Origin: Bdellovibrionales bacterium
GTDB lineage: Bacteria > Bdellovibrionota > Bdellovibrionia > Bdellovibrionales > JAUICD01
Direction of reading: 5' to 3'
Assembly: GCA_965197425.1 (NCBI GenBank)
Contig: CBDANC010000015.1
Location: 128,001 to 192,000 of the forward strand
DNA length: 64,000 bases
Of this stretch, positions 17,410-55,464 are shown in pieces (the first letter of the stretch is position 1; each line of letters opens with the position of its first letter). The translations under genes and the position numbers were made by a program. The notes beneath the pieces were generated by a model. That model was given only the letters and a program-made list of their open reading frames with translations. It did not search any database and was not told the DNA's origin.

Positions 17410-17635
17410 AAGGTCTTCCGAACGAGGTCAATAAAGTGAACTTGTTACTTAAAGGTGAGCCTAGCGAAGCTAAAAATGGGCTGGTGTAACGACTGTACAA
17501 AGTACAAGTGGAACCAGAACATTTTTAAGCTAAGTGGCTCCTTCTTGCTTTTTTTGACCGAGTGGTTGCCCAGCACTGGAACAAGATGCCGATTTCGTCA
17601 CACAAGGTCTTCCGAACGAAGATTAGGAAGGCCTT
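17410..17635 (-). repeat. Modular hairpin repeat cluster: type-A element with a type-B element nested in its loop, plus a back-to-back pair of A ends
   Basis: Shares CTGGGCAACCACTCGG and CCTCGTTCGGAAGACCTT ends with copies at 18.9, 35.7, 38.9, 49.1, 53.3 and 55.3 kb; inner 17447-17541 has GGAGCCAC...CTCACCTTTAAGT ends. Confidence 0.88.
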
Positions 17636-17831
17636 AAAGCGCTGACTGAATATGGCAAATAACGCCTTGTTTATATTGTGTCTTTCTTTGTAAACCTTAT
17701 CAGGTGCGACTAAATTTTGTTCAAGATCTGCACTGAAAATATTTATAAAAATAACATGCTTGTAATATCCGGATAGTTGATATACCAAGTATTTCAATTA
17801 CTAATAAACTTTTTATTTATTTGATTTTAAA

Positions 17832-17847
17832 TGGTACAGGTTTTGCT
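17832..17847 (+). promoter_or_regulatory. Sigma-54 (-24/-12) promoter candidate
   Basis: TGGTACAGGTTTTGCT fits TGGCAC-N5-TTGCW with exact GG-N10-GC spacing, 28 nt before the 17876 start. Confidence 0.65.
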
Positions 17848-17875
17848 TTAAAACTCTTAAGAAGGGTCATTTTAG

Positions 17876-18760
17876 TTGGAATATTTTAACAATACAAAGT
17901 CAGTTTTGAGCAAATTTACAAAGATGGTACATGGTCGTTTTGGATTTGATGCTACCTTTCATACTGTAAAGAAGAGTGCTAAGAATGGGGACGGGCTTCT
18001 AAAAGTTATAGAAGATAACAAATACGCAAAAATCATAGCTTATAAAAATCATGTTATTATGCCAATAGAGCAATTTGGTGTTGTGCTTGGGTATGTAAAA
18101 ATCGAAAATGGCATTGCTCTTAAGCAAAACCACTTGATGCAAGTAAGTGATCTTTCAGATTTGTTGGTTAAGACAATGATTGTATCTGAAAAAAATAAAA
18201 GAATTCAGCTTATAATAGAGGATATTATTCAATCGAACTTAAGTAGCGTAAATGAGCTAGATACATTTTCAGAAAATCAGGTAAATCATTTAAAGGTTCT
18301 AAAAACTAATCTTCCTTTATTGATATTATCCAACACTCATTTGTCGGCTAGAAATTTGGCAAGAGACCTACATAGTGATTACAAAAGTGATCATTTTGTA
18401 ATTGTTGATGACTGTAATATATCTTATTTTAAAACATCTAAATCCATTAGCACTTTTAAAAATTGTACCATTTATATATCAGAGCTTGCAGATTTAGAAA
18501 AACAACCACAGTTGGCATTTGAACACTATCTTAAAATAGGGTCTTCACATGGCCCAAAAGTTATGGCATGTACTATTTTTGATCCTATACATTTAGTTAA
18601 AAAACAAATTGTTAGACAGGAGCTCATATATCTTTTATCAGGTAACAGAATTTTAAGTCCAGAAGATGAGTGCAGACTAGAGGACAAATCTACCTTAACT
18701 AAATATCTATTTAGTTCATTGAAAAATAAGTCTAAGATTTCACTTTTGCCTGGTATTTAA
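17876..18760 (+). CDS. Hypothetical protein with a degenerate sigma-54 activator (AAA+)-like domain
   Basis: LPLLIL...ARDLH...FVIVD...TIYISELADL...Q...KVMACT...RQELIYLL parallels bEBP motif order, but Walker A and GAFTGA are not recognisable. Confidence 0.55.
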   Translation: MEYFNNTKSVLSKFTKMVHGRFGFDATFHTVKKSAKNGDGLLKVIEDNKYAKIIAYKNHVIMPIEQFGVVLGYVKIENGIALKQNHLMQVSDLSDLLVKTMIVSEKNKRIQLIIEDIIQSNLSSVNELDTFSENQVNHLKVLKTNLPLLILSNTHLSARNLARDLHSDYKSDHFVIVDDCNISYFKTSKSISTFKNCTIYISELADLEKQPQLAFEHYLKIGSSHGPKVMACTIFDPIHLVKKQIVRQELIYLLSGNRILSPEDECRLEDKSTLTKYLFSSLKNKSKISLLPGI

Positions 18761-18770
18761 CTTGCAATTA

Positions 18771-18978
18771 TTAGTCTCATCTTTAGTGGAAACAGGCACT
18801 CGGCCAAAAGATGTCTTGGCTACATTTGGACTTCGTCCTGCATTTCACCAATACATCTTATTGGCCTCATTAACCTCACCTTTAGTTACTGGGTCGGCAT
18901 CGTGTCCAGAGCTGGGCAACCACTCGGATAAAAAAAGTGAACAAGTCCACTTATTTTTATCCTCGTTCGGAAGACCTT
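18771..18978 (+). repeat. Modular hairpin repeat cluster: lone B end, type-B element with long core, type-A element with short core
   Basis: CACTCGGCCAAAAGATGTCTTGG...CATCTTATTGGCCTCATTAACCTCACCTTTAGT followed by GCTGGGCAACCACTCGG...GTGAACAAGTCCAC...CCTCGTTCGGAAGACCTT. Confidence 0.88.
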
Positions 18979-19028
18979 AGATTGTAGGTTATTTGTAAAA
19001 TAAAAGATGCCATGCTAGAGTCGATCTT

Positions 19029-20012
19029 ATGGTAGAGAGTGGTCGTGAAGACTTAGAAAAGTTAGAGAAAGATAATTTAACTCCAGACCATTTTGATAAT
19101 AAGAAAAGCATACAAACATTTTTAGGCACAGATAACTTCAATATAACTCCTCTTACAGGGGATGCATCTAATAGAAATTATTTTAGGATAACCACTTCAA
19201 ATAAAAATTATATTTTGATGCAAAGTCATGATGAAAATAGCAATAAAAATTTTGTTACTATCTTAAATATTCTAGAAACTGCTAAAGTTAATGTTCCAAA
19301 ACTTTTTAAACACAAAAATCTTTTTATGTTAGAAGACCTAGGAGATCTAACATTAGAGCAGTTGTTCTTTAAAGAGAAAAAAGAAGCTGTAATTACTATG
19401 TACAAAAAGGCAATAGATCAACTAATACAGCTTCAAAAAGTTCAGTCTAATTTAAATATTACTTTTGATACAAAAAAATTATTTGAAGAGCTTATGTTTT
19501 TTAAAAATCAATTTTTTGTAGGTGCTAGTAAAATTGATAAGGAGATGGAAGCTACTTTTCAAAGTATATGCGAAAGGCTTGATAGCAAAAATCATGTTAC
19601 ATGCTTTGTGCATAGAGATTTTCATTCAAGAAATATAATGGTGTACAATAATAAACCTTACATCATTGATTTTCAAGATGCTAGAATAGGGATTTGTCAG
19701 TATGATTTGGTAAGCTTATTAAAAGACTCTTATATACATATACCGTTTGGGAACTGTCTTTTAGATTATTACTTTGAAAATTCTCATTTTAAATTCAACA
19801 AAGAAGAGTTTATGCAAGTGTTTGAGCTTCAGAGTGTTCAAAGAAGTCTTAAAGCTTGTGGTAGCTTTAAGAGTTTTGATAATTTAAAAAATGACAAAAG
19901 ATATTTAAAATATATTCCTATTGGCTTGGACTATGCTCTGGAAAGTTTAAAGAAATTTAAAGAATACAAAACACTTTTTGATATTATATTGGATTTAAGG
20001 GGTGGTTTATGA
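19029..20012 (+). CDS. amgK: Anomeric MurNAc/GlcNAc kinase (aminoglycoside phosphotransferase fold)
   Basis: LTGDASNRNYFR, LEDLGD, HRDFHSRNIM, IDFQDA, YDLVSLL; paired with a nucleotidyltransferase. Confidence 0.8.
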   Translation: MVESGREDLEKLEKDNLTPDHFDNKKSIQTFLGTDNFNITPLTGDASNRNYFRITTSNKNYILMQSHDENSNKNFVTILNILETAKVNVPKLFKHKNLFMLEDLGDLTLEQLFFKEKKEAVITMYKKAIDQLIQLQKVQSNLNITFDTKKLFEELMFFKNQFFVGASKIDKEMEATFQSICERLDSKNHVTCFVHRDFHSRNIMVYNNKPYIIDFQDARIGICQYDLVSLLKDSYIHIPFGNCLLDYYFENSHFKFNKEEFMQVFELQSVQRSLKACGSFKSFDNLKNDKRYLKYIPIGLDYALESLKKFKEYKTLFDIILDLRGGL

Positions 20013-20722: not shown

Positions 20723-20733
20723 AATTAAGTGTT

Positions 20734-22898: not shown

Positions 22899-22954
22899 TT
22901 ATATACCCTCACTTATAGACGATCTACAGCTCATGTACCTTCGGCAAATTTCGA

Positions 22955-23112
22955 ACTAAAGGTGAGCTTAATGAGGCAAAAAACAAGGAGGCTTTGCCTA
23001 CCTTTTTTTGCCGAGTGGCTCCTTCCTGGTGGGCCTCATGGCTGATTCCTCTGTTCGGGTATTCTGGCATTCCGGAACTCAAGCAACCAGTCAGTGTTAA
23101 CCTCACCTTCAC
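22955..23112. repeat. Two back-to-back type-B hairpin repeat elements
   Basis: Minus-strand GGAGCCACTCGGCAAAAAAAGGTAGGCAAAGCCTCCTTGTTTTTTGCCTCATTAAGCTCACCTTTAGT, then a plus-strand hairpin ending GTTAACCTCACCTT. Confidence 0.75.
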
Positions 23113-23182
23113 ACTGTATTTTATTGGGATTTTCTAAAAAAAGTTATAGCAATGTGTATCTTGTTTGCTATGATCTTGTTTC

Positions 23183-23335: not shown

Positions 23336-26300
23336 AGTTACGCTTAAGTAATGCATATTTCAAACAGAATAAAAGTTGGTTTAAGCCACTATTAAAATGC
23401 CTCCGCCTGCAAGGTGGTAAATGCCTCCATCTGCAAGGTGGTGGGTACTCTACTGGTGGTAAATGCCCCCACCTGCAAGGTGGTGGATACTCCACTGGTG
23501 GTGGTTTTACTTTAATAGAGACTGTAGTTGGTTTAGCCTTAGTATCCATATCTGGTTTTGTAGTTACATTTATATCTGGTCAGATGAACACGGCATCTAA
23601 GTTGACTGATGATTCCTATGAATGTGCAGCTATAGCTACTAATGTAATGGAGAGATTTTCTCAGGGTGGCTTAGAGCCTATTGTTTTGCTTAACTCAGAG
23701 CATTTCCCTGGTACTCCTCCTACTGATTTTGAAGCAGCTATAGAAGAAAGAAGCACTATATCTGTAAACACTAGTGGAGAGGCTACTCATAATGCTGGTC
23801 CTAATCTTGTTATAGAGCCTCATGGTAGTAATAGTCACATTACTTTGAAAGTAGATAAGTTTCATAGAGGTAGTGGTGTTAGTTTAGTAGAAGATTTATT
23901 TAACGAGTACCGTTCTACCATATGTCCATCTAATGTAGATAACCTGACCTTTGATCTTGCTAATGATATGGTGATTACCTACAAGGCTGGTAACACTGCT
24001 AAGCTGATAGACTTACATAAGAAGCTAGATGATGTAAAACCAGCAACTCCAGGACCTGAACCTGATTACTATAAGGAAATGGCTGATGCTAATTTATCTT
24101 CTAATAACTATGCTTGGGATACTTTTACCTCTGAGTACTTATATGGTTTATCCAAGAGTCTCAAAAATGCCTTAAATTTGCATCTCTTAGCAGGTTTTAC
24201 TGATTATAGTACTAGTTATACTAATACTGCTCAGCCATATGATGTGAAGATAGGTATAAGGCCTTGGAGTTTATCTAATCGTAGTGCTCTTGGTTGTACT
24301 GATACTAAGGTTCATCCAGCAGTCTTTTTAAGACCTGGTTCTAAATATGACAGATACATTACAGATAGTATTTTAGGCACCAACGAATTAGAGAGACAGA
24401 ATAAGATTGGTTATAAGCTGGAGAGGAGTCTAACTTCAGCTAAGATGAGGTCAGATGTAGGTTTGAAGTTATTTGTTGAAGTTAAAACAAGACCTGGTGT
24501 GGATAAGTTAGAAAGATCCTGTAAGTCAAATAAGTTATTTGCTTATGCTAACAGCTTTGCAGTTCCTCCATCTAGAAGACCTGTATATGTTCACCATGAC
24601 AGAGAGATTAAAGATGGTTCTAATGATTTTATAGCTTCCACAACTCACCCTCTTCAAAACAACCCTGGTTTAAATGTTGGTTATAAGTATGGTGCTGCTG
24701 ATTCTATCCCTACTAAGCCTGATGGTGCTACTCATGCTACTCTTAGTGATTATGCTACAGAAGCTACATTAAACTTTAGGAATATTGGTAAGGTTTGGAG
24801 AGATGTAAACAACCCTAGTTCCTTTGCTGATGATGAGGAAGATTTTAGAGGGGTCTTTTTATGTGGTTTTGAGAAGAATCGTTTTGAAGACTGTGTTAAA
24901 GGCCCCCCCGATTGTGATGATATACCAGGTTTAAGCTCCTATAGGACTTTTGGTACTAATGGTGCACATAAGGCTGGTATAAGAAGCTATGATACTGAGT
25001 ATGGTAGTAGAGATGGCTCCGTAAACTCATCTAGGAGATGGGATTTATGTGAGAACTTTAAGCTTACCCCCAGTCAATCTAATAATTCTACCACACTAAA
25101 AGCCAGTGCATCCAATGTAGATGATGGTAAGTTAGGACTTGAGTTAGATAATTTAAATGTATCCAGTTGGCCTGATGAAGATCAGGATGCTGATTATAGA
25201 GTTAGATTTAAGTTAGTAGATGAATATGGTAATGATTACTCTGCCACAGAAAATGGACAGATACAGGAGGATGATTATACCGAGGAGCATAGAGTTTTTG
25301 CCTACAACTGTGCACAGTTTGGTAATACTCATGCTTCTGGTAGTTATCAAAATCCCCCTATAGGCTGTGGAGTTATAAATCCTGATCCTAATATTGCTAA
25401 GTACAACCGTAGGATAGATAATCCTTTCTATAATACCCAAGCAGATTGTGAACATCAGTTTAACCTACTTTCCAGCCCCAGTGCTCAATGTGTGAAAGTT
25501 ACTAATATTAGGGTTTACAATGATTATTTTGATGATTCCATAGAGGAGAGGACAGGTCCTGCGAACAGCCCTGTTCGTCCTGTTAATGGTACTGGAGTTA
25601 CCTGTGATTATTGGGTTGAGCAATGTGTAAAAGATGGTACAGCCTGTGTGCAATGTGGCCAAGGTTATATGCGTGATTATCCTAATGCCACAAGACAATC
25701 TTGTCATGGAGGTTCTGCAAGCTTAGGTGGAGTTACCTGTTATAAAGCAGGCTCTCATTGTTGTCATAATGATTATGGTAGTTTTAACTGTTTTACAGGT
25801 AAGGATCCTTGTTCAAATCCTAATGGTTGTGGATTTAACCAAGATCCTACCTGTGGAGCTACCTGTGGTGATAACGGCCACGGATGTAATATTTGTACAG
25901 GAGCTACTCCTTGTAACACAGCTGGTTGTGATAGTTGTAGTTTTGGTACTGCTGGAGTTTGTCAATATAAGTGTAGTTTCCCTACTCAGTACTGTGATGG
26001 TGCTAGTAATTGTGTAGAATGTCTGAATGACGGCCACTGTGGTGGTAATGATATATGTTGTTCTTACAGTTGTAAGGCCCCATGTAGTCCAGATTCTGAT
26101 CAATGTGAGGAGTGTGCTAGTGATTGTGCATCTCCTCATTCAATATGTGGTTCTGGTGAAGGGTGTAATGGTAGTGGGTGTTGTGTAGAGCTACCGCCTT
26201 GGTGTAATCCTGCATGTACAGGTACAGATATATGTTGTGGTACTGGTACTTGTCAGTCTAGTTGTGCTCCCCTGAATGTTGGTGCATGTACTTCTGGTAA

Positions 26301-28719
26301 TACACCTCCGCCTCCATGTCCTGGTGGTCAGATAATGTGTGGTGGTAGTTGTAGGATTGCAGCTTGTAATAATGATAATGACTGTAATTCAGGTGAGACC
26401 TGTCAGAATGGAGGAAGTTGTACTGCTACATGTGCAGGTGTTACCTGTGGTACTGGTAGTATGACGGGCTATCCTAATTCTCCTCCTGATCCAGGGTGTG
26501 GAGCTACAAGTAGAATCGCAAGTGGTGTAGAATGCTGGACAGATCCAAATTGTACAGGAAGTACTCCGAACTGCTGTGGCACAACTTGTCAGGCCACTTG
26601 TGGCTGTACCTCAGATATTGAGTGCTCTGTGCCTACACCGGCTACTCCGTGTTGTGTTGGTACTACCTGTGCTGCTGCAGCTTGTACAGTAGATCCTAAT
26701 AATTGTGTAACATGTCCTACTGGCTCGTGTGGTACTCCAGTTACAGGGCCAGCAACTTGTACGGCGGACCCGAATACATGTACCACATGTCCTAATGGTC
26801 CATGTGGTACTCCAGTTACAACAACTCCTTGTGGTCCATGTAACCCACCAACTTGCACGCCGGATCCTGATAATTGTGTAACATGTCCTACTGGCTCATG
26901 TGGTACTCCAGTGACGGGAACAGCAACTTGTACGGCGGACCCGAATACATGTACTACATGTTCTAATGGCCCATGTGGTACTCCAGTTACAACAACTCCT
27001 TGTGGTCCATGTACTTCTAATAGTGACTGTGCTGATCCAGCTAAGCCGAATTGTTGTGGTGGAAGCTGTCAAGCAGTCACTTGCGTAAGTACACCATGTA
27101 CTTCTAATGGTGACTGTGCTGATCCAGCTAAGCCGAATTGTTGTGGTGGAAGCTGTCAAGCAGCTACTTGTCCAGTAAACTGTGGTACACCTACTTGTGA
27201 TGACTGTGAGACACAACAAAATTGTACTGGAACAGGGTGGACCTGTGCACCTAAAACTGATGGAACTAGTTGTGGCACATGTGGAACATGCAGTAGCGGG
27301 TCTTGTAATGAACCGGCTACTTGTCCAGTAAACTGTGGTACACCTACTTGTGATGACTGTGAGACACAACAAAATTGTACTGGAACAGGGTGGACCTGTG
27401 CACCTAAAACTGATGGAACTAGTTGTGGCACATGTGGAACATGCAGTAGCGGGTCTTGTAATGAACCGGCTACTTGTCCAGTAAACTGTGGTACACCTAC
27501 TTGTGATGACTGTGAGACACAACAAAATTGTACTGGAACAGGGTGGACCTGTGCACCTAAAACTGATGGAACTAGTTGTGGCACATGTGGAACATGCAGT
27601 AGCGGGTCTTGTAATGAACCGGCTACTTGTCCAGTAAACTGTGGTACACCTACTTGTGATGACTGTGAGACACAACAAAATTGTACTGGAACAGGGTGGA
27701 CCTGTGCACCTAAAACTGATGGAACTAGTTGTGGCACATGTGGAACATGCAGTAGCGGGTCTTGTAATGAACCGGCTACTTGTCCAGTAAACTGTGGTAC
27801 ACCTACTTGTGATGACTGTGAGACACAACAAAATTGTACTGGAACAGGGTGGACCTGTGCACCTAAAACTGATGGAACTAGTTGTGGCACATGTGGAACA
27901 TGCAGTAGCGGGTCTTGTAATGAACCGGCTACTTGTCCAGTAAACTGTGGTACACCTACTTGTGATGACTGTGAGACACAACAAAATTGTACTGGAACAG
28001 GGTGGACCTGTGCACCTAAAACTGATGGAACTAGTTGTGGCACATGTGGAACATGCAGTAGCGGGTCTTGTAATGAACCGGCTACTTGTCCAGTAAACTG
28101 TGGTACACCTACTTGTGATGACTGTGAGACACAACAAAATTGTACTGGAACAGGGTGGACCTGTGCACCTAAAACTGATGGAACTAGTTGTGGCACATGT
28201 GGAACATGCAGTAGCGGGTCTTGTAATGAACCGGCTACTTGTCCAGTAAACTGTGGTACACCTACTTGTGATGACTGTGAGACACAACAAAATTGTACTG
28301 GAACAGGGTGGACCTGTGCACCTAAAACTGATGGAACTAGTTGTGGCACATGTGGAACATGCAGTAGCGGGTCTTGTAATGAACCATCACCCTGTCCATG
28401 TACCTCCGATAGCGAATGTGGTGCGGGTGAAAGATGTTGTTCTGGTGACTGCATAGAACCTGCTTGTAGCAGTGATGGTGATTGCAATTCAGGTGAAACT
28501 TGTGAAAATCCAGGAGATTGTAATGCCAGTTGTGTTGATCCGTGTGACGGTGCAAGAGATTGTCAGGCTAGTAATGCTTTCGATGTCAGTGATTTGTCGA
28601 GTTGCACGGCGTGGGCAATTGGAGCAGGCTTGGGTGAATGTAACCCGCTACCACCAAGTTGCGAAGCATTCTATCATAACAGCACACTTTGTTGTTATGT
28701 AGCTGTGTGCGGATTTTAG
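23287..28719 (+). CDS. Giant Cys-rich type IV pilin-like surface protein (start uncertain)
   Basis: Frame is open from 23287; G|FTLIETVVGLALVSISGFVVTFISG prepilin motif (Phe codon 23506) lies upstream of the ORF-track ATG 23584; C-terminal ~1000 aa are Cys-rich repeats. Confidence 0.85.
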   Translation, partial: RIFSCTPPSKIPHRGLKLRLSNAYFKQNKSWFKPLLKCLRLQGGKCLHLQGGGYSTGGKCPHLQGGGYSTGGGFTLIETVVGLALVSISGFVVTFISGQMNTASKLTDDSYECAAIATNVMERFSQGGLEPIVLLNSEHFPGTPPTDFEAAIEERSTISVNTSGEATHNAGPNLVIEPHGSNSHITLKVDKFHRGSGVSLVEDLFNEYRSTICPSNVDNLTFDLANDMVITYKAGNTAKLIDLHKKLDDVKPATPGPEPDYYKEMADANLSSNNYAWDTFTSEYLYGLSKSLKNALNLHLLAGFTDYSTSYTNTAQPYDVKIGIRPWSLSNRSALGCTDTKVHPAVFLRPGSKYDRYITDSILGTNELERQNKIGYKLERSLTSAKMRSDVGLKLFVEVKTRPGVDKLERSCKSNKLFAYANSFAVPPSRRPVYVHHDREIKDGSNDFIASTTHPLQNNPGLNVGYKYGAADSIPTKPDGATHATLSDYATEATLNFRNIGKVWRDVNNPSSFADDEEDFRGVFLCGFEKNRFEDCVKGPPDCDDIPGLSSYRTFGTNGAHKAGIRSYDTEYGSRDGSVNSSRRWDLCENFKLTPSQSNNSTTLKASASNVDDGKLGLELDNLNVSSWPDEDQDADYRVRFKLVDEYGNDYSATENGQIQEDDYTEEHRVFAYNCAQFGNTHASGSYQNPPIGCGVINPDPNIAKYNRRIDNPFYNTQADCEHQFNLLSSPSAQCVKVTNIRVYNDYFDDSIEERTGPANSPVRPVNGTGVTCDYWVEQCVKDGTACVQCGQGYMRDYPNATRQSCHGGSASLGGVTCYKAGSHCCHNDYGSFNCFTGKDPCSNPNGCGFNQDPTCGATCGDNGHGCNICTGATPCNTAGCDSCSFGTAGVCQYKCSFPTQYCDGASNCVECLNDGHCGGNDICCSYSCKAPCSPDSDQCEECASDCASPHSICGSGEGCNGSGCCVELPPWCNPACTGTDICCGTGTCQSSCAPLNVGACTSGNTPPPPCPGGQIMCGGSCRIAACNNDNDCNSGETCQNGGSCTATCAGVTCGTGSMTGYPNSPPDPGCGATSRIASGVECWTDPNCTGSTPNCCGTTCQATCGCTSDIECSVPTPATPCCVGTTCAAAACTVDPNNCVTCPTGSCGTPVTGPATCTADPNTCTTCPNGPCGTPVTTTPCGPCNPPTCTPDPDNCVTCPTGSCGTPVTGTATCTADPNTCTTCSNGPCGTPVTTTPCGPCTSNSDCADPAKPNCCGGSCQAVTCVSTPCTSNGDCADPAKPNCCGGSCQAATCPVNCGTPTCDDCETQQNCTGTGWTCAPKTDGTSCGTCGTCSSGSCNEPATCPVNCGTPTCDDCETQQNCTGTGWTCAPKTDGTSCGTCGTCSSGSCNEPATCPVNCGTPTCDDCETQQNCTGTGWTCAPKTDGTSCGTCGTCSSGSCNEPATCPVNCGTPTCDDCETQQNCTGTGWTCAPKTDGTSCGTCGTCSSGSCNEPATCPVNCGTPTCDDCETQQNCTGTGWTCAPKTDGTSCGTCGTCSSGSCNEPATCPVNCGTPTCDDCETQQNCTGTGWTCAPKTDGTSCGTCGTCSSGSCNEPATCPVNCGTPTCDDCETQQNCTGTGWTCAPKTDGTSCGTCGTCSSGSCNEPATCPVNCGTPTCDDCETQQNCTGTGWTCAPKTDGTSCGTCGTCSSGSCNEPSPCPCTSDSECGAGERCCSGDCIEPACSSDGDCNSGETCENPGDCNASCVDPCDGARDCQASNAFDVSDLSSCTAWAIGAGLGECNPLPPSCEAFYHNSTLCCYVAVCGF
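23395..23502 (+). repeat. Tandem repeat (24 + 42 + 42 bp) in the prepilin leader, encoding KC(L/P)(R/H)LQGG(GYSTGG)
   Basis: AAATGCC..C..CTGCAAGGTGGT units read directly; contains GTGGATACTCCAC at 23483-23495. Confidence 0.9.
26680..27162 (+). repeat. Degenerate coding duplications in the giant protein: 2 x 171 bp and 2 x 87 bp
   Basis: DPxNCVTCPTGSCGTPVTG...CGPC at 26692 and 26863; CTSNxDCADPAKPNCCGGSCQA twice at about 27007 and 27094. Confidence 0.88.
27163..28385 (+). repeat. 8 x 153-bp tandem repeat (51-aa unit with 10 Cys)
   Basis: TGTGGTACACC recurs at 27181, 27334, 27487, 27640, 27793, 27946, 28099, 28252; no differences between units seen by eye. Confidence 0.97.
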
Positions 28720-28982: not shown

Positions 28983-31900
28983 TTAATGTTTAGCTCTCAG
29001 TGCTTTTGCAGTTATTGCATTGGAAACTGTCGAAAGATCTAAAGGAGCAACACTCCTATCAGAATATTCAGAAACAGTTTTAATTGTATACTGTGCTGCC
29101 TCAGATGAGTCTGCAACAATACCCCTATGAGGTCCTCCAATTCTAATTGAACTATTAGAAAGATTGTTATTGTGATGATAACGGCAGTATCCAACATATG
29201 AATCTATATCGACATCTTCACAAAGTTCCGATACTAAAACCTCCTTGTCAGCGCTAAATACAGGAACGAATTGATTGGTCCCAGAATAGGACATTATAGT
29301 TGAAACTGGAAGATCGCTTAGATACCCTCCATAGCCATAGCCAAACCCAGTAGCATTTGCACCATTAAGTCCAAACGATCCCGGATCTGCCCCAGCGTTC
29401 AACAGTGTATCTACATCATGGTGAAGACCTAAAATATGACCAATTTCATGCGCTAATATACTAGAAGCTGAATAGTAGTTACCACTACTATTACTTGAAA
29501 AGAAATGATCCCTAACCCTTACAACTCCCCTAGAGTTCCATCTGGATAAAGAGTGATGATTAATATAGAACGGATTTATTGTTGCCGCACCACCTCCTGT
29601 GCCAAGAACAACTGAAAAAATTATGTCAGCAGGGTGATCCTTACGAATAATCGGGAGGAACTCCAAAAGTAATGCTTGTTCCCCTTGTCCATATGAAGAG
29701 CCAGCATTAAGCCTTTCATCTTCAAAAAATAAATCATCAAAGGAAGGCAGATCACATAGCAAATACCCTCTATACTCAGAAAAAGGACTCATTACTGAAG
29801 CCCTAAGCTCAACATTTATCCCAGATCTCTGAAATAACCTGTTTGTATTTTCAATAACATTATCTTCAAACTTCTTTCGCCAATCACCAATAGCATTGTT
29901 TACAATAGTATCTGAAAAAATGAATGCAGCATCAATAACATACCTAGTGTTAGGCTCTGCTTTTTCAAACTTTTGTCTTTGCTCATCACCACCAAATATA
30001 TCATCCGACATTGCACCATCAAAGGCTACGTCATCTGGTAAAGAGGCAAATGCTCCAGTTGCATATGTATCACATGTAAAACGATCTACTTCCTCCTGAT
30101 CACCATGCTGCTCATGATAGCGATCATAACTTGATGTAGATGGTCTGTATTCAACATCACAAGAATTGAAAGCATACACAACTCCATAATCTCCATGATA
30201 AAATGTTTTTGTGTCGTCTAAATAGGAATTAACAGAGCTACTATCAGCGATCTTAGCTACATCAGATCTTCTGGCAAAATTGCTGACCACAACATCATAA
30301 ACAACCCACTCAGTAAAAATTTCTCCGAAATGTGTTGCAGGCTCATACGGAGGATTTATAGTAATAACAGTCTTACCACCTAAATGACTTACCGATGCTA
30401 GGTTCAAACCTATAGGTCCGTTTAATCTTACACGATCCTCTCTAGGCCGATATTCCCTTTCAGAAATCTCTATCATCTCTAGAATATCTTCCTTTGTAAT
30501 CTCTCGCCACTGGCCAGAATCAGGTAAATATACAACCTCTGAATCAAAATAAATCTTTATAACTTCTGTTGGATCCCAACTGGACTCAATTAACTCCCTT
30601 CCTCCTCTTGGAGTGAAAGTGTAGACTACCTGAGGAATCCTAATGCAGTCCTTCGAGCCATCATCATTTGTTAGCTCAAAATAGCCAGAAGCATTCTCTT
30701 CACACAAGGTGCTAATATTAGGTGTTGAAAATGAAGAGTATTCTTTGTTTATTAGTGCAAGGTAGTCTTCTGTGTTGGTAGCATCTAAGACTTTCGAGAC
30801 GTTTAAAGAACTGGCATAGTTTTTTACCTTTACTGAATAACTTCCAGCAGGATAGCTTGGTTGAGGAGTTAGGATAAAATATGAGCTTTCCTCCTCAACT
30901 CCTGCTTCCATCTGAAATCTAAATGTACTAGTTAATAGATTTGTGCCTCCTGTGTTTAGTTCGATCATGTTTCTTGCAAAAGCTGCTGTAAGCCCTTCAT
31001 AACGAGAAGAATCTATAAAACTTATTCTTTCATCAAAACTTACCTTTATAGAGTGATCTGAGATTGTAGATGTATCTTCTACGGTGTTTCCTTCTTTATC
31101 AAGGTAAGTAATAGTAGGAGGGTTTATAAGCTTAATACAATCTGTTGTATTATCATCATAAGTTAACTCAAAATAACCAACTTCTTCTCTTCCACAAGGA
31201 GTTTCTATGTTAAAAGGTTGTTCTTGGCTTATTTCAGCTAGATAGCTTTGAATGTTATTACTTGCTAAAATAGCTCCATCATCATCACTTTTTGCATAAT
31301 TACCTACAGACAATACATACTGACCCAGCTCATATCTATTATCATTAGGAGGATTTATAGTAATAACTGTATTTTCGTTAGATTCTGTGACAGATATCTG
31401 ATCTTCACCAATAGGACCATCTACAGTTGCAAGATCAACTCCTGAACTATTAGTAATTGCAATCATTTCTAAGATATTTGGCTTGGTTAGACTGTTGGAT
31501 GTAATACCGTCTGTGTACACTATCTTAGCATCAAACTCCATTCTTATAATAGTGGTAGGATCTCCACTGTGTTCATCAGAAAAACTTTCTTTATCTTGTG
31601 TAAAGGTAAAGCTTAGTTGAGGTAGCTTTATACAACTAGTAGTTAAATTATTATTTGTTAGCTCAAAATAACCAGGTTCATTATTAGTACAAGAAGTTGG
31701 TATTACAGGAGATGTAAAAGAGGATAAGGACTGTGACATAGCATTAATCTTGCTAAGATACTCAGCTCTGTTAGTAGCATTAGCAATCTTGGATATATCA
31801 GCCTTCTTTGCATAATTACTCACACCAACTACATAATCTCCAGCAGGGTAGTTGGTTTCCGGAGTTAAAGTAAAAGAAGTCTCATCACTTGAAATCTCTA

Positions 31901-32984
31901 TGGTAAAACCAAAGCCAACATCTAACAGATCTATATTGCCTAACTTTATATCAACCATCTTAACTACATTCTCGGGAGTTAAGTTTCCATGGTCAGTAGC
32001 ATCAATAAAGCCTACAGCCTCTTTGAAGGTTACCTTTATGCTGTGATTTGTGATTTCATTTGTGTTTATAACATTCCCATCTTCATCAAGATAAGTAATA
32101 GTAGGAGGTTCGATGAGCTGTATACAGTTGCTAGCACTATTACCAGTAGAACTAGTTAGCTGAAAATACCCTGGTTCTCCCCTGGTACAAGGAGTCTCTA
32201 TTATTGGATCAGGATCTGGTTCTGTAACATCACCACATGAAGCTATACCTAGTGTGGCTAATATTAACATAGCTCCATTCAAAACAGGCTTTACTCTAGA
32301 AGTTACTAAGTTTGATCTTACTAAATTTCTTGCTAATTTTAACCTTTTAATGGGGGTAAAGGAAATAAGAAGTCCTGCTGCGGAAACTCCGCTGGTAACT
32401 GAAAATGTAGAGCTTCCTTCGTTAGATAATGTGGGATTATTAGAGTTTTGAGCTTGAACATTGGAATTACCTAATTCTAAGCCTCTTAGAGCAGATTCAC
32501 CATAAGACTTATAATCACTGTTATTTCTACCGTCTTCTATGCTTTTACTATTACCAGTGGAGTATCCATCTACATTTGTAAAACCAAGTGCTCTACAAAA
32601 TGATTGGTTGGTGTTTGAGTCAGAAGAACATAGAGATGATACAAACTCTAGGATGCTCTCAGTACAACCTTCGGTATCAATTAATAAATTTCCATTAGAA
32701 TCTGTCTTTTGTAGTTTATCGAAGAATTCCTGTGAAGACAGGGTGGATACTCCACTCGTACTATTTGCCTCAGTTTGAGTAACTTCCTGTAAAACCTCAC
32801 ATGAAGAGACTGCACTTTGTGCTAATCTAAGATCCGTTGTACTAGGATCTGTGAAACTGTTGAAGTGTCCGCTTTGGGCATTAGAATTAACTGAGAAAAC
32901 GAGAAGAAGTAAAAAACTCACTCGGGTTATGTAATCACTACGAATGGTGTAATCAAAGAAATTATATTTTAATAAATTTCTCAA
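28983..32984 (-). CDS. Large secreted metzincin (reprolysin/M12-like) zinc metalloprotease with four internal repeats
   Basis: HEIGHILGLHHD zinc motif and STIMSY Met-turn near the C-terminus; four C..GYFxLT..C-headed domains; GAGGAG SD before a TTG start. Confidence 0.85.
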   Translation of the reverse strand: MRNLLKYNFFDYTIRSDYITRVSFLLLLVFSVNSNAQSGHFNSFTDPSTTDLRLAQSAVSSCEVLQEVTQTEANSTSGVSTLSSQEFFDKLQKTDSNGNLLIDTEGCTESILEFVSSLCSSDSNTNQSFCRALGFTNVDGYSTGNSKSIEDGRNNSDYKSYGESALRGLELGNSNVQAQNSNNPTLSNEGSSTFSVTSGVSAAGLLISFTPIKRLKLARNLVRSNLVTSRVKPVLNGAMLILATLGIASCGDVTEPDPDPIIETPCTRGEPGYFQLTSSTGNSASNCIQLIEPPTITYLDEDGNVINTNEITNHSIKVTFKEAVGFIDATDHGNLTPENVVKMVDIKLGNIDLLDVGFGFTIEISSDETSFTLTPETNYPAGDYVVGVSNYAKKADISKIANATNRAEYLSKINAMSQSLSSFTSPVIPTSCTNNEPGYFELTNNNLTTSCIKLPQLSFTFTQDKESFSDEHSGDPTTIIRMEFDAKIVYTDGITSNSLTKPNILEMIAITNSSGVDLATVDGPIGEDQISVTESNENTVITINPPNDNRYELGQYVLSVGNYAKSDDDGAILASNNIQSYLAEISQEQPFNIETPCGREEVGYFELTYDDNTTDCIKLINPPTITYLDKEGNTVEDTSTISDHSIKVSFDERISFIDSSRYEGLTAAFARNMIELNTGGTNLLTSTFRFQMEAGVEEESSYFILTPQPSYPAGSYSVKVKNYASSLNVSKVLDATNTEDYLALINKEYSSFSTPNISTLCEENASGYFELTNDDGSKDCIRIPQVVYTFTPRGGRELIESSWDPTEVIKIYFDSEVVYLPDSGQWREITKEDILEMIEISEREYRPREDRVRLNGPIGLNLASVSHLGGKTVITINPPYEPATHFGEIFTEWVVYDVVVSNFARRSDVAKIADSSSVNSYLDDTKTFYHGDYGVVYAFNSCDVEYRPSTSSYDRYHEQHGDQEEVDRFTCDTYATGAFASLPDDVAFDGAMSDDIFGGDEQRQKFEKAEPNTRYVIDAAFIFSDTIVNNAIGDWRKKFEDNVIENTNRLFQRSGINVELRASVMSPFSEYRGYLLCDLPSFDDLFFEDERLNAGSSYGQGEQALLLEFLPIIRKDHPADIIFSVVLGTGGGAATINPFYINHHSLSRWNSRGVVRVRDHFFSSNSSGNYYSASSILAHEIGHILGLHHDVDTLLNAGADPGSFGLNGANATGFGYGYGGYLSDLPVSTIMSYSGTNQFVPVFSADKEVLVSELCEDVDIDSYVGYCRYHHNNNLSNSSIRIGGPHRGIVADSSEAAQYTIKTVSEYSDRSVAPLDLSTVSNAITAKALRAKH

Positions 32985-35639: not shown

Positions 35640-35680
35640 AGATTGCCTGATCAATGTGATTGGATCAACTGTGAGGTCAA

Positions 35681-35750
35681 GAGCTGGGCAACCACTCAGT
35701 CAAAAAAAATGAACAAGTCCACTTATTTTTGACTTCGTTCGAAAAACCTT
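35681..35750 (+). repeat. Type-A hairpin repeat element (short core)
   Basis: GAGCTGGGCAACCACTCAGTCAAAAAAAATGAACAAGTCCACTTATTTTTGACTTCGTTCGAAAAACCTT; abuts the stop codon of the four-helix-bundle gene. Confidence 0.85.
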
Positions 35751-36043
35751 TAAGTATTCTTACACAATTTATATAGATATCGTCCTAGTCTATCTGCTTC
35801 TTCTATTAGATTTTTATGGTTTACAATATTTAGTATTGCTTGCACTTCTCTGAGTGATCCGAGGCTGATTCTATAGAATTTTCTTCGATCTTTAGCTGTT
35901 GGTTTGGCACTTCCCTCTGCTAAATTGAGCACAATGCTTAAGATTGCTCTTTTGAACTGATTTTCAAGTGGTTCTTTTAAGTACAGGCTTCTAGAGTTTT
36001 TATAGAATTTAATTGCTAATTGATAAGTTTTTAATTTTTTCAT
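35750..36043 (-). CDS. Four-helix-bundle protein (23S rRNA IVS protein / TIGR02436-like)
   Basis: LKTYQLA...QFKRAILSIVLNLAEGS...RKFYRISLGSLREV family pattern; start ATG 36043 with AGGGAGG SD. Confidence 0.88.
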   Translation of the reverse strand: MKKLKTYQLAIKFYKNSRSLYLKEPLENQFKRAILSIVLNLAEGSAKPTAKDRRKFYRISLGSLREVQAILNIVNHKNLIEEADRLGRYLYKLCKNT

Positions 36044-36088
36044 AAAAATTTTCCTCCCTACCATCTTTTGATGGGAGGAAATTTTTTT
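36044..36088 (-). promoter_or_regulatory. Hairpin containing the Shine-Dalgarno of the four-helix-bundle gene
   Basis: Minus strand reads AAAATTTCCTCCCATC-AAAA-GATGGTAGGGAGGAAAATTTTT-ATG; CCTCCC can pair with GGGAGG. Confidence 0.65.
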
Positions 36089-36103
36089 GAAAAATTTAAA
36101 TCA

Positions 36104-38850: not shown

Positions 38851-38873
38851 GTGTAAGGTATTTTAGTTATGGG

Positions 38874-38985
38874 ATCAGTGTCGTGTTAGAGAGCTGGGCA
38901 ACCACGAGGCAAAAAATGCTCTGGCTTCACTTGCACTGCGTGCTTTTGTTTTGCTATTTCATTTTTTACCTCTTAGGAAGACCTT
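38874..38985 (+). repeat. Type-A hairpin repeat element between cusB and cusA
   Basis: GAGCTGGGCAACCACGAGGCAAAAAATG...CATTTTTTACCTCTTAGGAAGACCTT, ending 1 nt before ATG 38987. Confidence 0.82.
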
Positions 38986-38986
38986 T

Positions 38987-43122: not shown

Positions 43123-43199
<77 letters not shown>

Positions 43200-45148: not shown

Positions 45149-45170
45149 CTAAGTAAGACCTTACAAAAGT

Positions 45171-49010: not shown

Positions 49011-49072
49011 TTTTATATTACCAACCTCCTCGTTCTGATGACCTTTAGACACTTTTGTCGTATTACACCTTG

Positions 49073-49289
49073 CAAAGCTGGGCAACTCTAATACTGAAAG
49101 TACCTTGGCTACGCTTGGACTTTGTCCTGCGTTTCGCCTAGGCAACTTTCAGTTTTAGCGAAGACCTTTATGTAACGGGATTAGCATCGTGTCCAAAGCT
49201 GGGCAACTCTAATACTGAAAGTACCTTGGCTACGCTTGGACTTTGTCCTGCGTTTCGCCTAGGCAACTTTCAGTTTTAGCGAAGACCTT
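49073..49289 (+). repeat. Two identical 96-bp type-A elements (long core) separated by 25 bp
   Basis: 49073-49168 and 49194-49289 both read CAAAGCTGGGCAACTCTAATACTGAAAG...CTTTCAGTTTTAGCGAAGACCTT. Confidence 0.95.
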
Positions 49290-49390
49290 GATAGAACTTA
49301 TTACATGACTTATAGCATCAAGACTTAGTATTTTTACCAAATTTAATAACACAATGGTAGGTTTTAGCACTAGTTTAGTTTTAATAATTA

Positions 49391-49876: not shown

Positions 49877-49925
49877 TTTTGCCTAAATATAGTTAGATAG
49901 TGTAAAGTGATAGCGGGAGATTGCT

Positions 49926-51362: not shown

Positions 51363-51384
51363 ATTGTTGATGTTGGATAATTAG

Positions 51385-52140: not shown

Positions 52141-52153
52141 GGAAAACTAAGTT

Positions 52154-53302
52154 TTGAGTTTTATTAAAACAGTAACTGAATTTGTAAGCCCAAATTACAA
52201 AAAGCACCAAGGATCAATGCTTGATTTTCCACCTAAATCAGAAGAATGGAAGTACACTAGGCTTAGTGGTTTAAATAAGTTTAATCCAACAAAAGCTCTG
52301 AGTCTAAAGATTAAGACCAAAACTGAGAATCAAATTATTTTTGAAAACTCTAAATTAACATATAATACAGTCAAAGATATCGGTATTGATGATAAGCCTT
52401 CATCTAAAAATATATCATACAAAAATGATGATGTTTTAAATCAATTAAACCAAATTATATCACAAAATAGTTATCAACTAGATATTGTAAAATCATGTGA
52501 TGAGACAATTAATATTCATTCAGTAGGAGATGCAATATCAGGTTCTAGAATTCATTTAAAAGTTTCATCAAACACTAAAGCAAGTGTATGTTTTAATCCA
52601 GATTCTCTGGGTGTAACATGTAATGTTTTTGCTGTAACACTTGAGGAGGGTAGTACTCTTGATTTTTATAATGTAGAAGATATAAAGGGAACTAATCTTG
52701 ATCAATATATATTTAATGTTTCTAAAAATGCCACCTTGAACTTTATAAATGTTATATCTGGAGCAGGTACTTCAAGATTAAATGGCGTGTTTAATTTAGA
52801 TTTTGAATATGCTACTCTAAATCTGGGATCTATAAGTTGTATTCATGACAAAGCACATGTAGATAATCATTTTTACATACATCATAATGCTCCCAACACT
52901 TATAGCCAAATTGATGTAAGAAGTATTTTATCTGGAACTTCTAAATATATATATAATGGATTAGTTTTTGTAGATGCAAAGTGTGATGGTTCAAACTCAG
53001 ATCAAATAAACCAAAATATTCTGTTAAGCGACTACGCAACAGTAAATGCAAAACCTGAACTTAAAATACTTTCTGATGATGTACAGGCAAATCATGGTTG
53101 TACTACTGGTCGCATTGAAGATGAGGAGTTATTTTATATCTGCACAAGAGGTTTAGATAAAAAAACAGCAAATCGATTGATCCTAGATGGATATATAACT
53201 GGCATTACAAAAAAAATAAACTTTGGCCAAAGAAAATCAATAGATAGTAGATTATTAGGCATTTTAGATAACAATTTGAATGATAACACAATTGGTGTTT
53301 AG
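52154..53302 (+). CDS. sufD: Fe-S cluster assembly protein SufD
   Basis: EEWKYT, KPELKILSDDVQANHGCTTG, LFYICTRG. Confidence 0.92.
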   Translation: MSFIKTVTEFVSPNYKKHQGSMLDFPPKSEEWKYTRLSGLNKFNPTKALSLKIKTKTENQIIFENSKLTYNTVKDIGIDDKPSSKNISYKNDDVLNQLNQIISQNSYQLDIVKSCDETINIHSVGDAISGSRIHLKVSSNTKASVCFNPDSLGVTCNVFAVTLEEGSTLDFYNVEDIKGTNLDQYIFNVSKNATLNFINVISGAGTSRLNGVFNLDFEYATLNLGSISCIHDKAHVDNHFYIHHNAPNTYSQIDVRSILSGTSKYIYNGLVFVDAKCDGSNSDQINQNILLSDYATVNAKPELKILSDDVQANHGCTTGRIEDEELFYICTRGLDKKTANRLILDGYITGITKKINFGQRKSIDSRLLGILDNNLNDNTIGV

Positions 53303-53329
53303 AAGGAGGGTTAGCAATGAGGCAGAAAA

Positions 53330-53423
53330 CTGGGCAACCATCAAGCAAAAAGATGTCTTGGCTACATTTGGACTTTGTCCTATATTACGCCAATCCATCT
53401 TTTAGCTTGATTAGGAAGACCTT
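53330..53423 (+). repeat. Type-A hairpin repeat element (long core) between sufD and sufS
   Basis: CTGGGCAACCATCAAGCAAAAAGATGTCTTGGCTACATTTGGAC...CATCTTTTAGCTTGATTAGGAAGACCTT directly abutting GTG 53424. Confidence 0.88.
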
Positions 53424-54626
53424 GTGGATAAATTTATAAAAGATCAATTTCCTATATTAAATACCAAGATTAATTCTAAAAGATTGGTGTATCTAGATAG
53501 TGCAGCTACCAGTTTAAAGCCAAGACAAGTTATAGATAGAATATATAAACATTATTTGGAAGAGTCTTCCAATGTGCATAGAGGTGTACATCACTTAAGT
53601 GCAAATGCTACCTTAGCTTATGAAGAGACACGCAAAGGTATAAGTAAGTTTATAGGATCAAAACAATCTGAACAAATTATTTTTACTAAAGGTAGTACAG
53701 AATCATTAAATATGATAGCAAACAACTTTTTGTTATCTAAAGATGATGAAATTTTACTAACCCAGATGGAGCATCACTCCAATATTGTACCATGGTTGAA
53801 TTTATCTAAAAAACAAGGATGTAAAGTTAGATTTTTGCCAGTGCTAGAAGATGGTAGTTTAGATTTAAATAATTTAGCTAAATATTTAAATACCAAAACA
53901 AAAGTCTTTTCGTTCACTTATATCTCAAATGTTTTGGGTACAAAAAATGATATTGAATTTTTAATAAAAAAAGCAAAAGAGGTGGGCGCAATCACAATAA
54001 TAGATGCAGCACAGGCACTAGCACATGTGCCTATTGATGTAGAGAGTTTTGAATGTGATTTTTTAGTTGCATCTGCACACAAATGTTTTGGTCCAACCGG
54101 AGTTGGGTTTTTGTATGCTAAAAAAGAACATTTAGAGAAGTTTGCGCCATATCAATTTGGTGGAGCAATGATTGATGAAGTTACCACCAAACACTTTACT
54201 CTAGCTGATATACCACACAGATTTGAGGCAGGTACTCCTAATATAGCAGGAGTTATAGGTACCTTGGAAGCTATAAATTTTGTAAAAAAAATAACTTTTG
54301 AGAAAATTAGAAAACATGAGTCAGAACTGTTGAAATATGTAAAAGAAAAGTTAAATACAATAGATAAACTTAGGATATTAGCAAATCCTACAGAAGCTAT
54401 TATTTCATTTGTAATAGAAGGTTGTCACCATACAGATATAGGAGAACTTGTAGATAATCACTCTGTTGCAATTAGAGTTGGACACCACTGTTGTCAACCA
54501 TTGATGAATAGATTCGGTATAACGGGATCTATTAGAGCTTCATTTAGTGTTTATAATTGTAAAGATGATATAGATAGGCTTGTGGAGGCTTTAAAGGACT
54601 CTATAAACTTACTTACCAACACTTGA
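53424..54626 (+). CDS. sufS: Cysteine desulfurase SufS
   Basis: YLDSAATS, NVHRG, MEHHSN, DAAQ, SAHKCFGPTG, FEAGTPN, RVGHHC. Confidence 0.96.
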   Translation: MDKFIKDQFPILNTKINSKRLVYLDSAATSLKPRQVIDRIYKHYLEESSNVHRGVHHLSANATLAYEETRKGISKFIGSKQSEQIIFTKGSTESLNMIANNFLLSKDDEILLTQMEHHSNIVPWLNLSKKQGCKVRFLPVLEDGSLDLNNLAKYLNTKTKVFSFTYISNVLGTKNDIEFLIKKAKEVGAITIIDAAQALAHVPIDVESFECDFLVASAHKCFGPTGVGFLYAKKEHLEKFAPYQFGGAMIDEVTTKHFTLADIPHRFEAGTPNIAGVIGTLEAINFVKKITFEKIRKHESELLKYVKEKLNTIDKLRILANPTEAIISFVIEGCHHTDIGELVDNHSVAIRVGHHCCQPLMNRFGITGSIRASFSVYNCKDDIDRLVEALKDSINLLTNT

Positions 54627-54664
54627 ACTTTACATGATACTATAACCTTGTTATCTATAAAAGA

Positions 54665-55231
54665 ATGTGGAAGAAAAATAAAACCAATATACTAATTGAA
54701 CCTACCCCTAACCCCAATGCTCTTAAATTTGTGTTGGACACAGAAGTTATAGATAGGGGTAAAGCCAGTTTTAATGATATAGGTGAATGTGATCATATAC
54801 CTCTAGCAAGAGATATTATATCCATCGAAGGTGTTTTGCAGGTACACTTATTTGAAAATGTCATAAGTGTAACTAAAAGTGATTTAGAGTGGGATGAACT
54901 GACCCCTAAAATAGAGTCAGTGATCGTAACAAGACTTCCATCTCACGACATCAACTTCAACCAAAAGCAAGAAGAACAGCAGGTTAAAAAGAGAGAAAAT
55001 TTGCCTTTAGAAATTCAACAAATTGAAGATATTTTGGATGATACCGTAAGGATAGGTTTAAGAGCGGATGGGGGAGATATAGAAGTATTGGAGCTGGAAG
55101 ATAACAGGCTTTATGTCAAATATGAAGGAGCTTGTGGAACATGCCCTAGTGCTACCACTGGAACTTTATATGTCATAGAGGCAATTCTAAAGGATAGATT
55201 TAACCCTGAAATAGAAGTAATAGCTGTATAA
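54665..55231 (+). CDS. NifU/Nfu-family Fe-S carrier (Nfu N-domain plus NifU domain)
   Basis: EPTPNPNALKF, DGGD, GACGTCP. Confidence 0.92.
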   Translation: MWKKNKTNILIEPTPNPNALKFVLDTEVIDRGKASFNDIGECDHIPLARDIISIEGVLQVHLFENVISVTKSDLEWDELTPKIESVIVTRLPSHDINFNQKQEEQQVKKRENLPLEIQQIEDILDDTVRIGLRADGGDIEVLELEDNRLYVKYEGACGTCPSATTGTLYVIEAILKDRFNPEIEVIAV

Positions 55232-55235
55232 CTTA

Positions 55236-55464
55236 CCTTATGGAAAGTGGTTTATAGTCCACATAAAGTGCTGGGCAACCATTCGGTCAAAAGATGTCTT
55301 GGTTTCACTTGGACTTTGTCCTGCGTTTCACCAACCCATCTTGTTGACCTCGTTCGGAAGACCTTACGGAAAGTGGTTTATAGTCCACATAAAGTGCTGG
55401 GCAACCACTCGGCAGAAAAAAGTAGGCAGAGCCTCCTTATTTTTTGCCTCGTTAGGAAGACCTT
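55236..55464 (+). repeat. Tandem pair of type-A elements with the same leader but different cores
   Basis: ACCTTAYGGAAAGTGGTTTATAGTCCACATAAAGTGCTGGGCAACCA occurs twice; first unit has the long GATGTCTTGG...CATC core, second the short GTAGGCAGAGCCTCC core. Confidence 0.92.

Follow-up and report, generated by a model that had tools for sequence, protein, structure and literature searches.

We analyzed a window of 64,000 nucleotides (nt) from a Bdellovibrionales bacterium (assembly GCA_965197425.1, contig CBDANC010000015.1, positions 128,001 to 192,000; C15:128001-192000 in our labels), where short hairpin repeats lie between housekeeping genes (hem, dap, cus, suf, sdh). These repeats belong to a family that is real, constrained by structure, mobile and devoid of genes, and that belongs to one genus. 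The source genome (G000; 1.60 Mb, 99% complete) was compared with that of a congener (G001; a single contig of 1.6 Mb, 93% complete), whose proteins have a median identity of 68% with those of G000, and with two members of the sister genus (G002 and G004). To compare strains, we used seven sequencing runs that contain the window region, none of which is recorded as RNA (X labels denote runs from conspecific strains).

Repeat units of the window and their anatomy

A first-pass annotation of the letters had described at least 12 elements at eight loci, with two end types (A and B) and interchangeable cores. We counted 12 complete units, and the loci and quoted motifs are all present in the sequence (Table 1): a type A unit hosting a nested type B at 17.4 kb, a B followed by an A at 18.8 kb, a B at 23.0 kb, single A units at 35.7, 38.9 and 53.3 kb, and pairs of A units at 49.1 and 55.3 kb. 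Besides these there are four orphan half-units (starting at 17604, 23099, 49028 and 53303). The long core is found with B ends at 18.8 kb and with A ends at 53.3 and 55.3 kb, the GTAGGC short core with B ends at 23.0 kb and A ends at 55.4 kb, and the four covarying stem pairs quoted by the annotation all occur. Chance does not explain the repeats of the window: a strict end-to-end pattern matches eight units there, whereas all 40 second-order Markov simulations gave no match.

Across G000 there are 145 units running from left to right motif, in around 135 intergenic clusters that total 24 kb, with 142 copies of CTGGGCAAC and 194 of GAAGACCTT. Only two clusters lie within long open reading frames (ORFs), both apparently spurious. 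The unit consists of a leader of around 29 nt, CTGGGCAAC, a hairpin of 40-190 nt and GAAGACCTT, and we call the strand read in this order the reader's strand. Type B units have AAACAGGCAC or GAAGGAGCCAC on the left and CTCACCTT on the right. The ends had been drawn differently at first: only CTGGGCAAC and GAAGACCTT are near-invariant, CACTCGG and CCTCGTT being variable outer stem, and the true unit reaches around 29 nt farther 5', over the leader. The leader, the fixed spacing from end to stem and the effect on ribosome-binding sites described below are additions to that first description. Its asymmetric ends were borne out, since the two ends are not complementary and form no terminal inverted repeats.

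The spacing within the unit is tightly held. The leader measures 27-32 nt at 71 of 72 tandem junctions, across several dissimilar leader sequence families, and the distance from CCTT to the stem is 38-40 nt in 47 of 50 cases in G000 and 38-41 nt in 53 of 56 in G001. Hairpin interiors comprise short cores, long cores and composites with nested modules; we saw type B within type A (17.4 kb), type A within type A, and a module of around 66 nt (module M) within elements. Clusters are mostly made of head-to-tail units on the same strand, and many arrays start with a truncated unit, i.e., a 3' arm followed by a right motif. The right end is sharp and the left end ragged. Of the 131 right ends that are terminal, 25 lie within 7 nt of an in-frame start codon, and 30 come to within a few bases of a convergent stop codon.

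Table 1. Repeat units and half-units of the window (positions from its first letter)
Feature	Position	Strand	Evidence
Type A unit (leader 17575-17603, left motif 17565-17574, short-core hairpin, right motif 17410-17418), interrupted by nested type B	17410..17603	-	Sequence; covariance model match 17410-17604, 40.6 bits
Type B element, long core, inserted in the short core of the type A unit	17447..17545	-	Sequence
Orphan 3' arm with right motif, from an upstream unit truncated on its 5' side	17604..17625	-	Sequence
Type B unit, long core, right end AACCTCACCTT	18783..18882	+	DNA fold z -5.0
Type A unit following the B unit head-to-tail, with 28-nt leader and GTGAAC short core	18883..18978	+	Sequence, covariance model match
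Type B unit, leader and GTAGGC short core	22959..23058	-	Sequence
Orphan type B right end, opposite orientation	23099..23109	+	Pattern
Type A unit, short core, adjoining the stop codon of an opposite-strand four-helix-bundle gene	35653..35750	+	Sequence, covariance model match
Type A unit, long core, between cusB- and cusA-like genes; AGGAAG-variant right end one base before ATG at 38987	38863..38985	+	Covariance model match
Degenerate 3' arm and right motif ahead of a tandem pair	49028..49045	+	Pattern
Type A unit, long core, leader family 3	49047..49168	+	Covariance model match
Type A unit, long core identical to that of 49047..49168, leader family 1	49169..49289	+	Covariance model match
Type A unit with long core in the sufD-sufS gap; inverted type B remnant (53303-53325) as leader; AGGAAG right end immediately ahead of the GTG start	53299..53423	+	Covariance model match
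Type A unit, long core, leader family 4, degenerate CCTT just before	55240..55365	+	Covariance model match
Type A unit, GTAGGC short core, same leader as 55240..55365, head-to-tail	55366..55464	+	Sequence, covariance model match

Fold, strand and mobility

The stem covaries well beyond the few pairs first noticed. At two variable positions of the outer stem, 64 and 62 of the 73 distinct units have complementary bases, compared with means of 40 and 25 and maxima of 51 and 39 in 5000 shuffles. In an alignment of 15 long-core units, 96% of the cells pair and 10 of the 15 pairs show changes on both sides, which none of 500 shuffles reached (controls with slid partners paired at 32-47%); the structure was derived from these same 15 sequences and the copies are related. 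Covariation survives the larger sample, and its interpretation as selection on the fold stands in part: taken alone, it could come from conversion between the arms of a palindrome. The mismatches conserved in the two species are the better argument for selection, because such conversion would erase them.

These mismatches are strongly biased. On the reader's strand C.T outnumbers A.G by 318 to 13, and the other strand thus carries purine-purine mismatches, including tandem GA. The complementary strand also folds better, in 95 of 118 units as DNA and 103 of 118 as RNA, and on it the loops of long cores are purine-N-A triloops in 44 of 47 cases in G000 and 47 of 48 in G001. Triloops of this kind, C(GNA)G, are stable in DNA, as are tandem GA pairs. 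The conserved mismatches favour one strand and suggest that the unit is likely recognized as folded single-stranded DNA.

The first-pass annotation had left the choice between a structured RNA and an element mobilized as single-stranded DNA. An RNA (small RNA, terminator or retro-mobile transcript) with selection on its fold seems very unlikely to us. The fold is indeed stable as RNA (median z -3.6), short cores resemble bidirectional terminators by eye, the reader's strand is co-oriented with flanking genes in G000 (49 to 27), and an analogous family in G002 and G004 (see below) has many GNRA-type loops. However, the elements match no Rfam model, neither G000 nor G002 has a reverse transcriptase, orientation to flanking genes is random in G001 (19/20/19/17), and the better-folding strand is less often the one on the mRNA. 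In addition, a scan for terminators gave no call at any of the three loci of 17.4-23.1 kb, and elements lie within operons (sufD-sufS, cusB-cusA). The RNA half of the proposal is unsupported, whereas the DNA half is favoured by the triloops, the mismatch bias, presence and absence among strains and independent expansion in the congener.

Comparison of filled and empty sites between strains, a check suggested at first pass, showed that two sites of the window are empty in conspecific strains. The 38.9-kb element (38857-38986) is absent from X4, X5 and X7, three of the four runs compared, and replaced by nine other letters. The 53.3-kb element (53276-53427) is also absent from three of four runs compared, with 14 letters in its place in X3 and X4 and 12 in X5; in these runs, sufD and sufS are coupled by an ATGA overlap. 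Outside the window, a 95-nt tandem unit at C15:435.8 kb is absent from X3, X4 and X5 and not reported absent from X1.

A covariance model built from 15 units of G000 (cut-off E<=0.01) gave 102 matches in the 1.6 Mb of G001 and none in the other 59 of the 60 relatives searched. The exact pattern of G000 has no match among the 60 relatives, including the diverged family of G001, and a degenerate end pattern matches 43 times in G000, 26 times in G001 and 0-3 times in each of 299 other genomes of the order. Both families have in common the ends, the internal loops, the purine-N-A triloops and the 38-41 nt from CCTT to stem. Across 679 syntenic gene pairs, elements are present only in G000 at 49 sites (median difference of +229 nt), only in G001 at 13 (-257 nt), and in both at five. 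Metagenomes gave at least 119 matches to the end pattern and viruses 20, those listed being all single and without BLAST similarity to units, which we take as chance; other viral pattern scans gave two chance matches in coding sequence, and further scans 0, 1 and 2 single matches. BLAST against phages and plasmids returned nothing better than E 7-9. The label of undescribed family agrees with our finding no description in the literature searched, a search whose coverage stopped short of subscription journals, supplements and ISfinder.

The flanks of the units give some indication of their targets. CTT stands at the left boundary of 47 of 75 first units, against 9 of 75 control windows, and TT is frequent at both ends of units. 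There is no fixed target-site duplication, the mode of repeat run length being 1-2 nt. The start of the leader matches the sequence behind the unit's own right end over at least 6 nt in seven of 118 units (1.3 expected), three of which are leftover tandem units; one of the matches, at a site that is empty in G001, extends over 10 nt. Right ends that fall 0-1 nt before ATG or GTG read A/G-GGAAG, a Shine-Dalgarno variant, in 14 of 15 cases; the corresponding count for the other right ends is 29 of 96 (p 4e-6). This suggests that selection keeps right ends that serve as replacement ribosome-binding sites at start codons. The family makes it possible to count instances in which a mobile end is also a ribosome-binding site within essential operons (suf, cus), and the unit of around 120 nt now has defined ends and spacing.

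Comparison with known systems and candidate mechanisms

The explanation we consider best, in which confidence and doubt are about equal, is that the units are non-autonomous DNA elements, likely read as a folded single strand and likely moved in trans by an HUH- or Rep-like enzyme that nicks and joins single strands. By analogy with TnpA-REP and REPINs, such an enzyme would be the single most likely mover. For TnpA-REP (PMC8266576), recognition likewise needs a strand-specific stem with conserved mismatches, and cleavage falls at a short site on the 5' or the 3' side of the stem. Here, the bound strand would be the complement of the reader's strand, GGTCTTC-hairpin-GTTGCCCAG-leader, and the enzyme, supplied from outside the element, would sit on the interrupted stem and cut at CCTT, 38-41 nt from the stem foot. 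The element would then be joined beside a TT-containing target resembling its own end/leader junction. Every right end that is inserted would recreate such a target, so that units accumulate in head-to-tail arrays and nest within each other. Homology between neighbours would swap ends, leaders and cores, which would therefore appear as interchangeable modules. The sharp right and ragged left ends would arise as in one-ended or rolling-circle copying. Selection would retain only intergenic insertions, and those at start codons would survive only with a right end that reads as a ribosome-binding site.

The family works like REP and REPIN elements but fails their defining features, and it likewise fails those of MITEs (miniature transposable elements with inverted repeats), BOX, IS110 mini-elements and attC sites. 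REP/BIME and REPINs with TnpA-REP (RAYT) are similarly short, intergenic, high-copy imperfect hairpins with conserved mismatches and strand asymmetry, and they too show tandem and nested clusters, an asymmetric mobile unit and long persistence in a lineage (PMC3116915, PMC8266576). In contrast, the two strands here have GGGCAAC and GGTCTTC at the stem foot, with no GTAG (or CGTC-type) tetranucleotide; the unit is not an inverted doublet and has a 29-nt leader at fixed spacing to the CCTT end; and three of four genomes have no RAYT or other Y1 gene.

Non-autonomous derivatives of IS200/IS605 are known as PATE-type. They share asymmetric ends, the lack of terminal inverted repeats and of a fixed duplication, and a short site that resembles a cleavage site and keeps a set distance to a hairpin. 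Unlike them, the units have one long hairpin instead of one at each end and no lagging-strand bias; the single IS200 in the family (G004) has ordinary ends unrelated to units, and there is no TnpA with matching ends. By inspection, no single guide tetranucleotide fits all end types. Rolling-circle origins and IS91-type elements have one sharp and one ragged end and tandem copies, as here, but no Rep_trans or Phage_CRI gene was found. The junction of leader family 1 ranked first among 1268 windows when compared with the plus-strand origin region of M13 (V00604), in a post hoc test; this likeness is weak, given a runner-up at 24.4 vs 24.6 and ranks of 8, 16, 330 and 653 for other leader sets.

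Other systems are more distant. The pneumococcal BOX, RUP and SPRITE elements are modular, under around 200 bp per unit, located near gene ends and able to affect neighbouring expression, whereas BOX and RUP have terminal inverted repeats and target duplications (PMC3049150); here, whole units are tandem or nested. Classical MITEs differ by terminal inverted repeats and a fixed target-site duplication. Integron attC sites are recombined by a tyrosine integrase at an RYYYAAC...GTTRRRY core. In contrast to cassette arrays, G000 has no tyrosine recombinase (PF00589), and the GTT partner is absent from many units. G000 also has no XerC/XerD; the small serine recombinase at C12:4669-5388 might stand in.

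The annotation's remark that the window encodes no cognate enzyme holds, and the search was extended to whole genomes. Y1 transposases (PF01797) have no match in G000, G001 and G002, nor has a custom profile of the relatives' Y1 proteins in six frames; IS110 (PF02371) has none in G000, G001, G002 and G004, and Rep_trans and Phage_CRI none in five genomes tested. A RAYT/HUH or IS110 gene flanked by the same ends was sought, with none found. No Y2 gene was found, in a search whose control gave no signal and which is uninformative. A screen for HUH motifs among proteins common to G000 and G001 gave no convincing candidate, and of two further searches, one returned only UvrC-sized matches and the other a type IA topoisomerase. 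A Pfam scan covered 271 of 280 pre-filtered basic, soluble proteins of G001 (out of 1131 with a homologue in G000), leaving out acidic, very large and membrane proteins. Its mobility-type candidates are Rpn/YhgA nucleases, one small serine recombinase and one small HNH protein; around 45 proteins have no family. Twelve genes have adjacent elements in both species (7.9 expected), and by eye none is a nuclease or recombinase.

Several observations weigh against an HUH- or Rep-like mover. The first is that no such enzyme was found in G000 or G001, because persistence since the species split is easier with an inherited helper. There is no lagging-strand bias in G001 (47 vs 36 clusters, p 0.27; replichores estimated from a weak third-position skew), and in contigs a circle junction would look the same as a tandem one. 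The empty alleles of the window have 9-14 letters that do not match the filled flanks, which makes the junctions approximate, and the 95-nt tandem loss involves eight shared letters, so it may be a slippage deletion. The left-boundary CTT count is inflated by truncated upstream units, and leader-target matches of at least 6 nt are few in G000 and not significant in G001 (2 of 61). Finally, the choice of strand is not clean: short-core loops are purine-N-A on the reader's strand in 70 of 83 cases, not on the complementary one, and G.T and A.C mismatches are even (88:86). A replication-strand bias in G000 (73:43) was rejected, as the skew there tracks gene direction.

For REP, REPIN and IS200/IS605 derivatives, the genome that carries them also encodes the HUH transposase they require, whereas this family persists in two species and varies among strains with none found. 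Either the helper resides on a phage or plasmid that was not binned, or folded DNA can be moved by enzymes of another class. It is conceivable, if rather doubtful, that the units make up a separate class of miniature mobile DNA of Bdellovibrionales with small genomes, read as folded single strands, moved by a non-HUH enzyme (most plausibly the Rpn/YhgA 'transposase_31' nuclease or a host enzyme) into targets resembling their own end/leader junction, and rewiring operons through replaced ribosome-binding sites.

Alternatively, a site-specific recombinase acting on double strands (IS110-type or small serine recombinase) could excise circles and integrate them at a shared TT core, the hairpin being a passenger. 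We consider this unlikely. It would account for the TT left on both sides of many units, and a serine recombinase of 230-240 aa is syntenic and 77% identical in G000 and G001, with relatives in G002 and G004. Yet this family is common (15 of 21 genomes), the genes examined have no element ends within 300-420 nt, and a duplex enzyme leaves the conserved internal loops and strand-biased mismatches unexplained. Head-to-tail modules from circular intermediates are described for the IS110 element ISPpu9, whose ssr9 mini-elements are also gene-less, depend on a helper in trans and show modular arrangements and asymmetric ends (PMC12288879). The four genomes, however, lack an IS110 recombinase, and there is no evidence of a small RNA.

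Quite unlikely, in our view, is that Rpn/YhgA-like PD-(D/E)XK nucleases break DNA and that the 3' ends prime template-switch copying of the folded element to new sites. The ragged left ends fit, and Transposase_31 occurs in exactly the four family-f1 genomes with hairpin families (1, 16, 16 and 19 matches) and in none of 37 other relatives. In the order, 30 of 301 genomes have Rpn, and a 13-mer of a third hairpin family (see below) reaches at least nine copies in seven of them, against three of the other 271; still, it is multicopy in three Rpn-negative genomes, and kinship and small-genome lifestyle confound the co-occurrence. RpnA products prime polymerase and template-switch joining was proposed, but RpnA showed no sequence specificity and no preference for cruciforms (PMC5350276). 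The Rpn genes of G000 and most of those of G001 have no elements nearby, and long hairpins are no denser near Rpn genes than in controls (14 in 87 kb vs 24 in 140 kb, the controls being repeat-rich). Rpn proteins reportedly act as anti-phage toxins, which also counts against them as movers. As a separate observation, several Rpn gene copies in G001 (L335, L337, L289, L304) have elements inside or at their edge, and comparison with intact paralogues gives an approximate empty site with a sharp right and a ragged left junction.

Without any dedicated enzyme, copies might spread by replication slippage, gene conversion and RecA-type recombination between palindromes. The loss of a tandem unit at eight letters of microhomology would fit, and swapped ends and cores are expected of recombination between neighbours. 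We consider this very improbable, since site-specific recognition is needed both for insertion at new intergenic sites that lack homology, where the right end is sharp, and for a spacing that stays the same in two species and with dissimilar leaders. It is scarcely credible that the helper is the multicopy four-helix-bundle (23S-IVS/Avd-like) gene, with the hairpins as its gene-less derivatives. Such genes give 19 matches at 18 loci in G000, 14 in G002 and 19 in G004, their flanking 7-mers resemble left motifs, and several elements adjoin these cassettes. But G001 has a homologous hairpin family and no such gene, which largely refutes the idea; around six of 18 cassettes have an adjacent element, about what density predicts (an estimate), and sampled regions of three other genomes rich in such genes showed no dispersed hairpin repeat.

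Related families and other observations

G002 and G004 carry an analogous, very dense but non-alignable family, with 989 and 246 copies of TTCCTTAACAT, respectively (L060-L075, L241-L252). CCTT lies there 32-34 nt before a branched hairpin, with a leader of 32-34 nt. The hairpin has a three-way junction, GNRA-type and AGA loops and repeated partial 3' arms. A third family, found in several families of Bdellovibrionales, has a conserved AAAACGAGTTCGG...TGTCTGAGCTTTT core clamped by perfect stems specific to each locus (L531, L532 and L568-L581, in G265, G221, G258, G230, G125, G164, G251 and G247).

The four-helix-bundle genes (PF05635) of G000 comprise one in the window, at 35750-36064 (-), and 17 more loci, each with an upstream hairpin at the ribosome-binding site and arrays of 7-mer repeats. 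Their proteins are 68-80% identical to those of G002 and G004 and absent from G001, which suggests horizontal spread. Module M, present in about 45 copies in G000, lies in frame at the same codon of five such genes or remnants (C6:2583, C12:103569, C13:84808, C13:208928 and C15:353034), with an apparent AA duplication. In G035, G031 and G025, the genes form divergent head-to-head pairs around a single perfect palindrome (L081/L260, L083/L258, L256, L257, L259), whose arms reach the first codons of both genes, as if by fold-back copying.

Elsewhere in these genomes, G001 has a CRISPR array of 36 repeats (C1, around 469 kb) and a 1037-aa ORF with a Cas9-like N-terminus (L284:13008-16118), which are absent from G000. 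In G000, a transposase-like ORF of 548 aa (C11:5853-7499) is 89% identical to one in a region of G002/G004, and by eye C9 resembles a contaminating eukaryotic transposon and C10 a piece of phage. The window itself also contains two giant cysteine-rich ORFs, at 23584-28719 (+) and 28983-32984 (-), the first with nine near-identical tandem repeats of 153 nt (27005-28528). At 60267-62274 (-) lie duplicated genes for hypothetical secreted proteins, with DNA blocks 82-94% identical, which belong to an eight-member family in G000.

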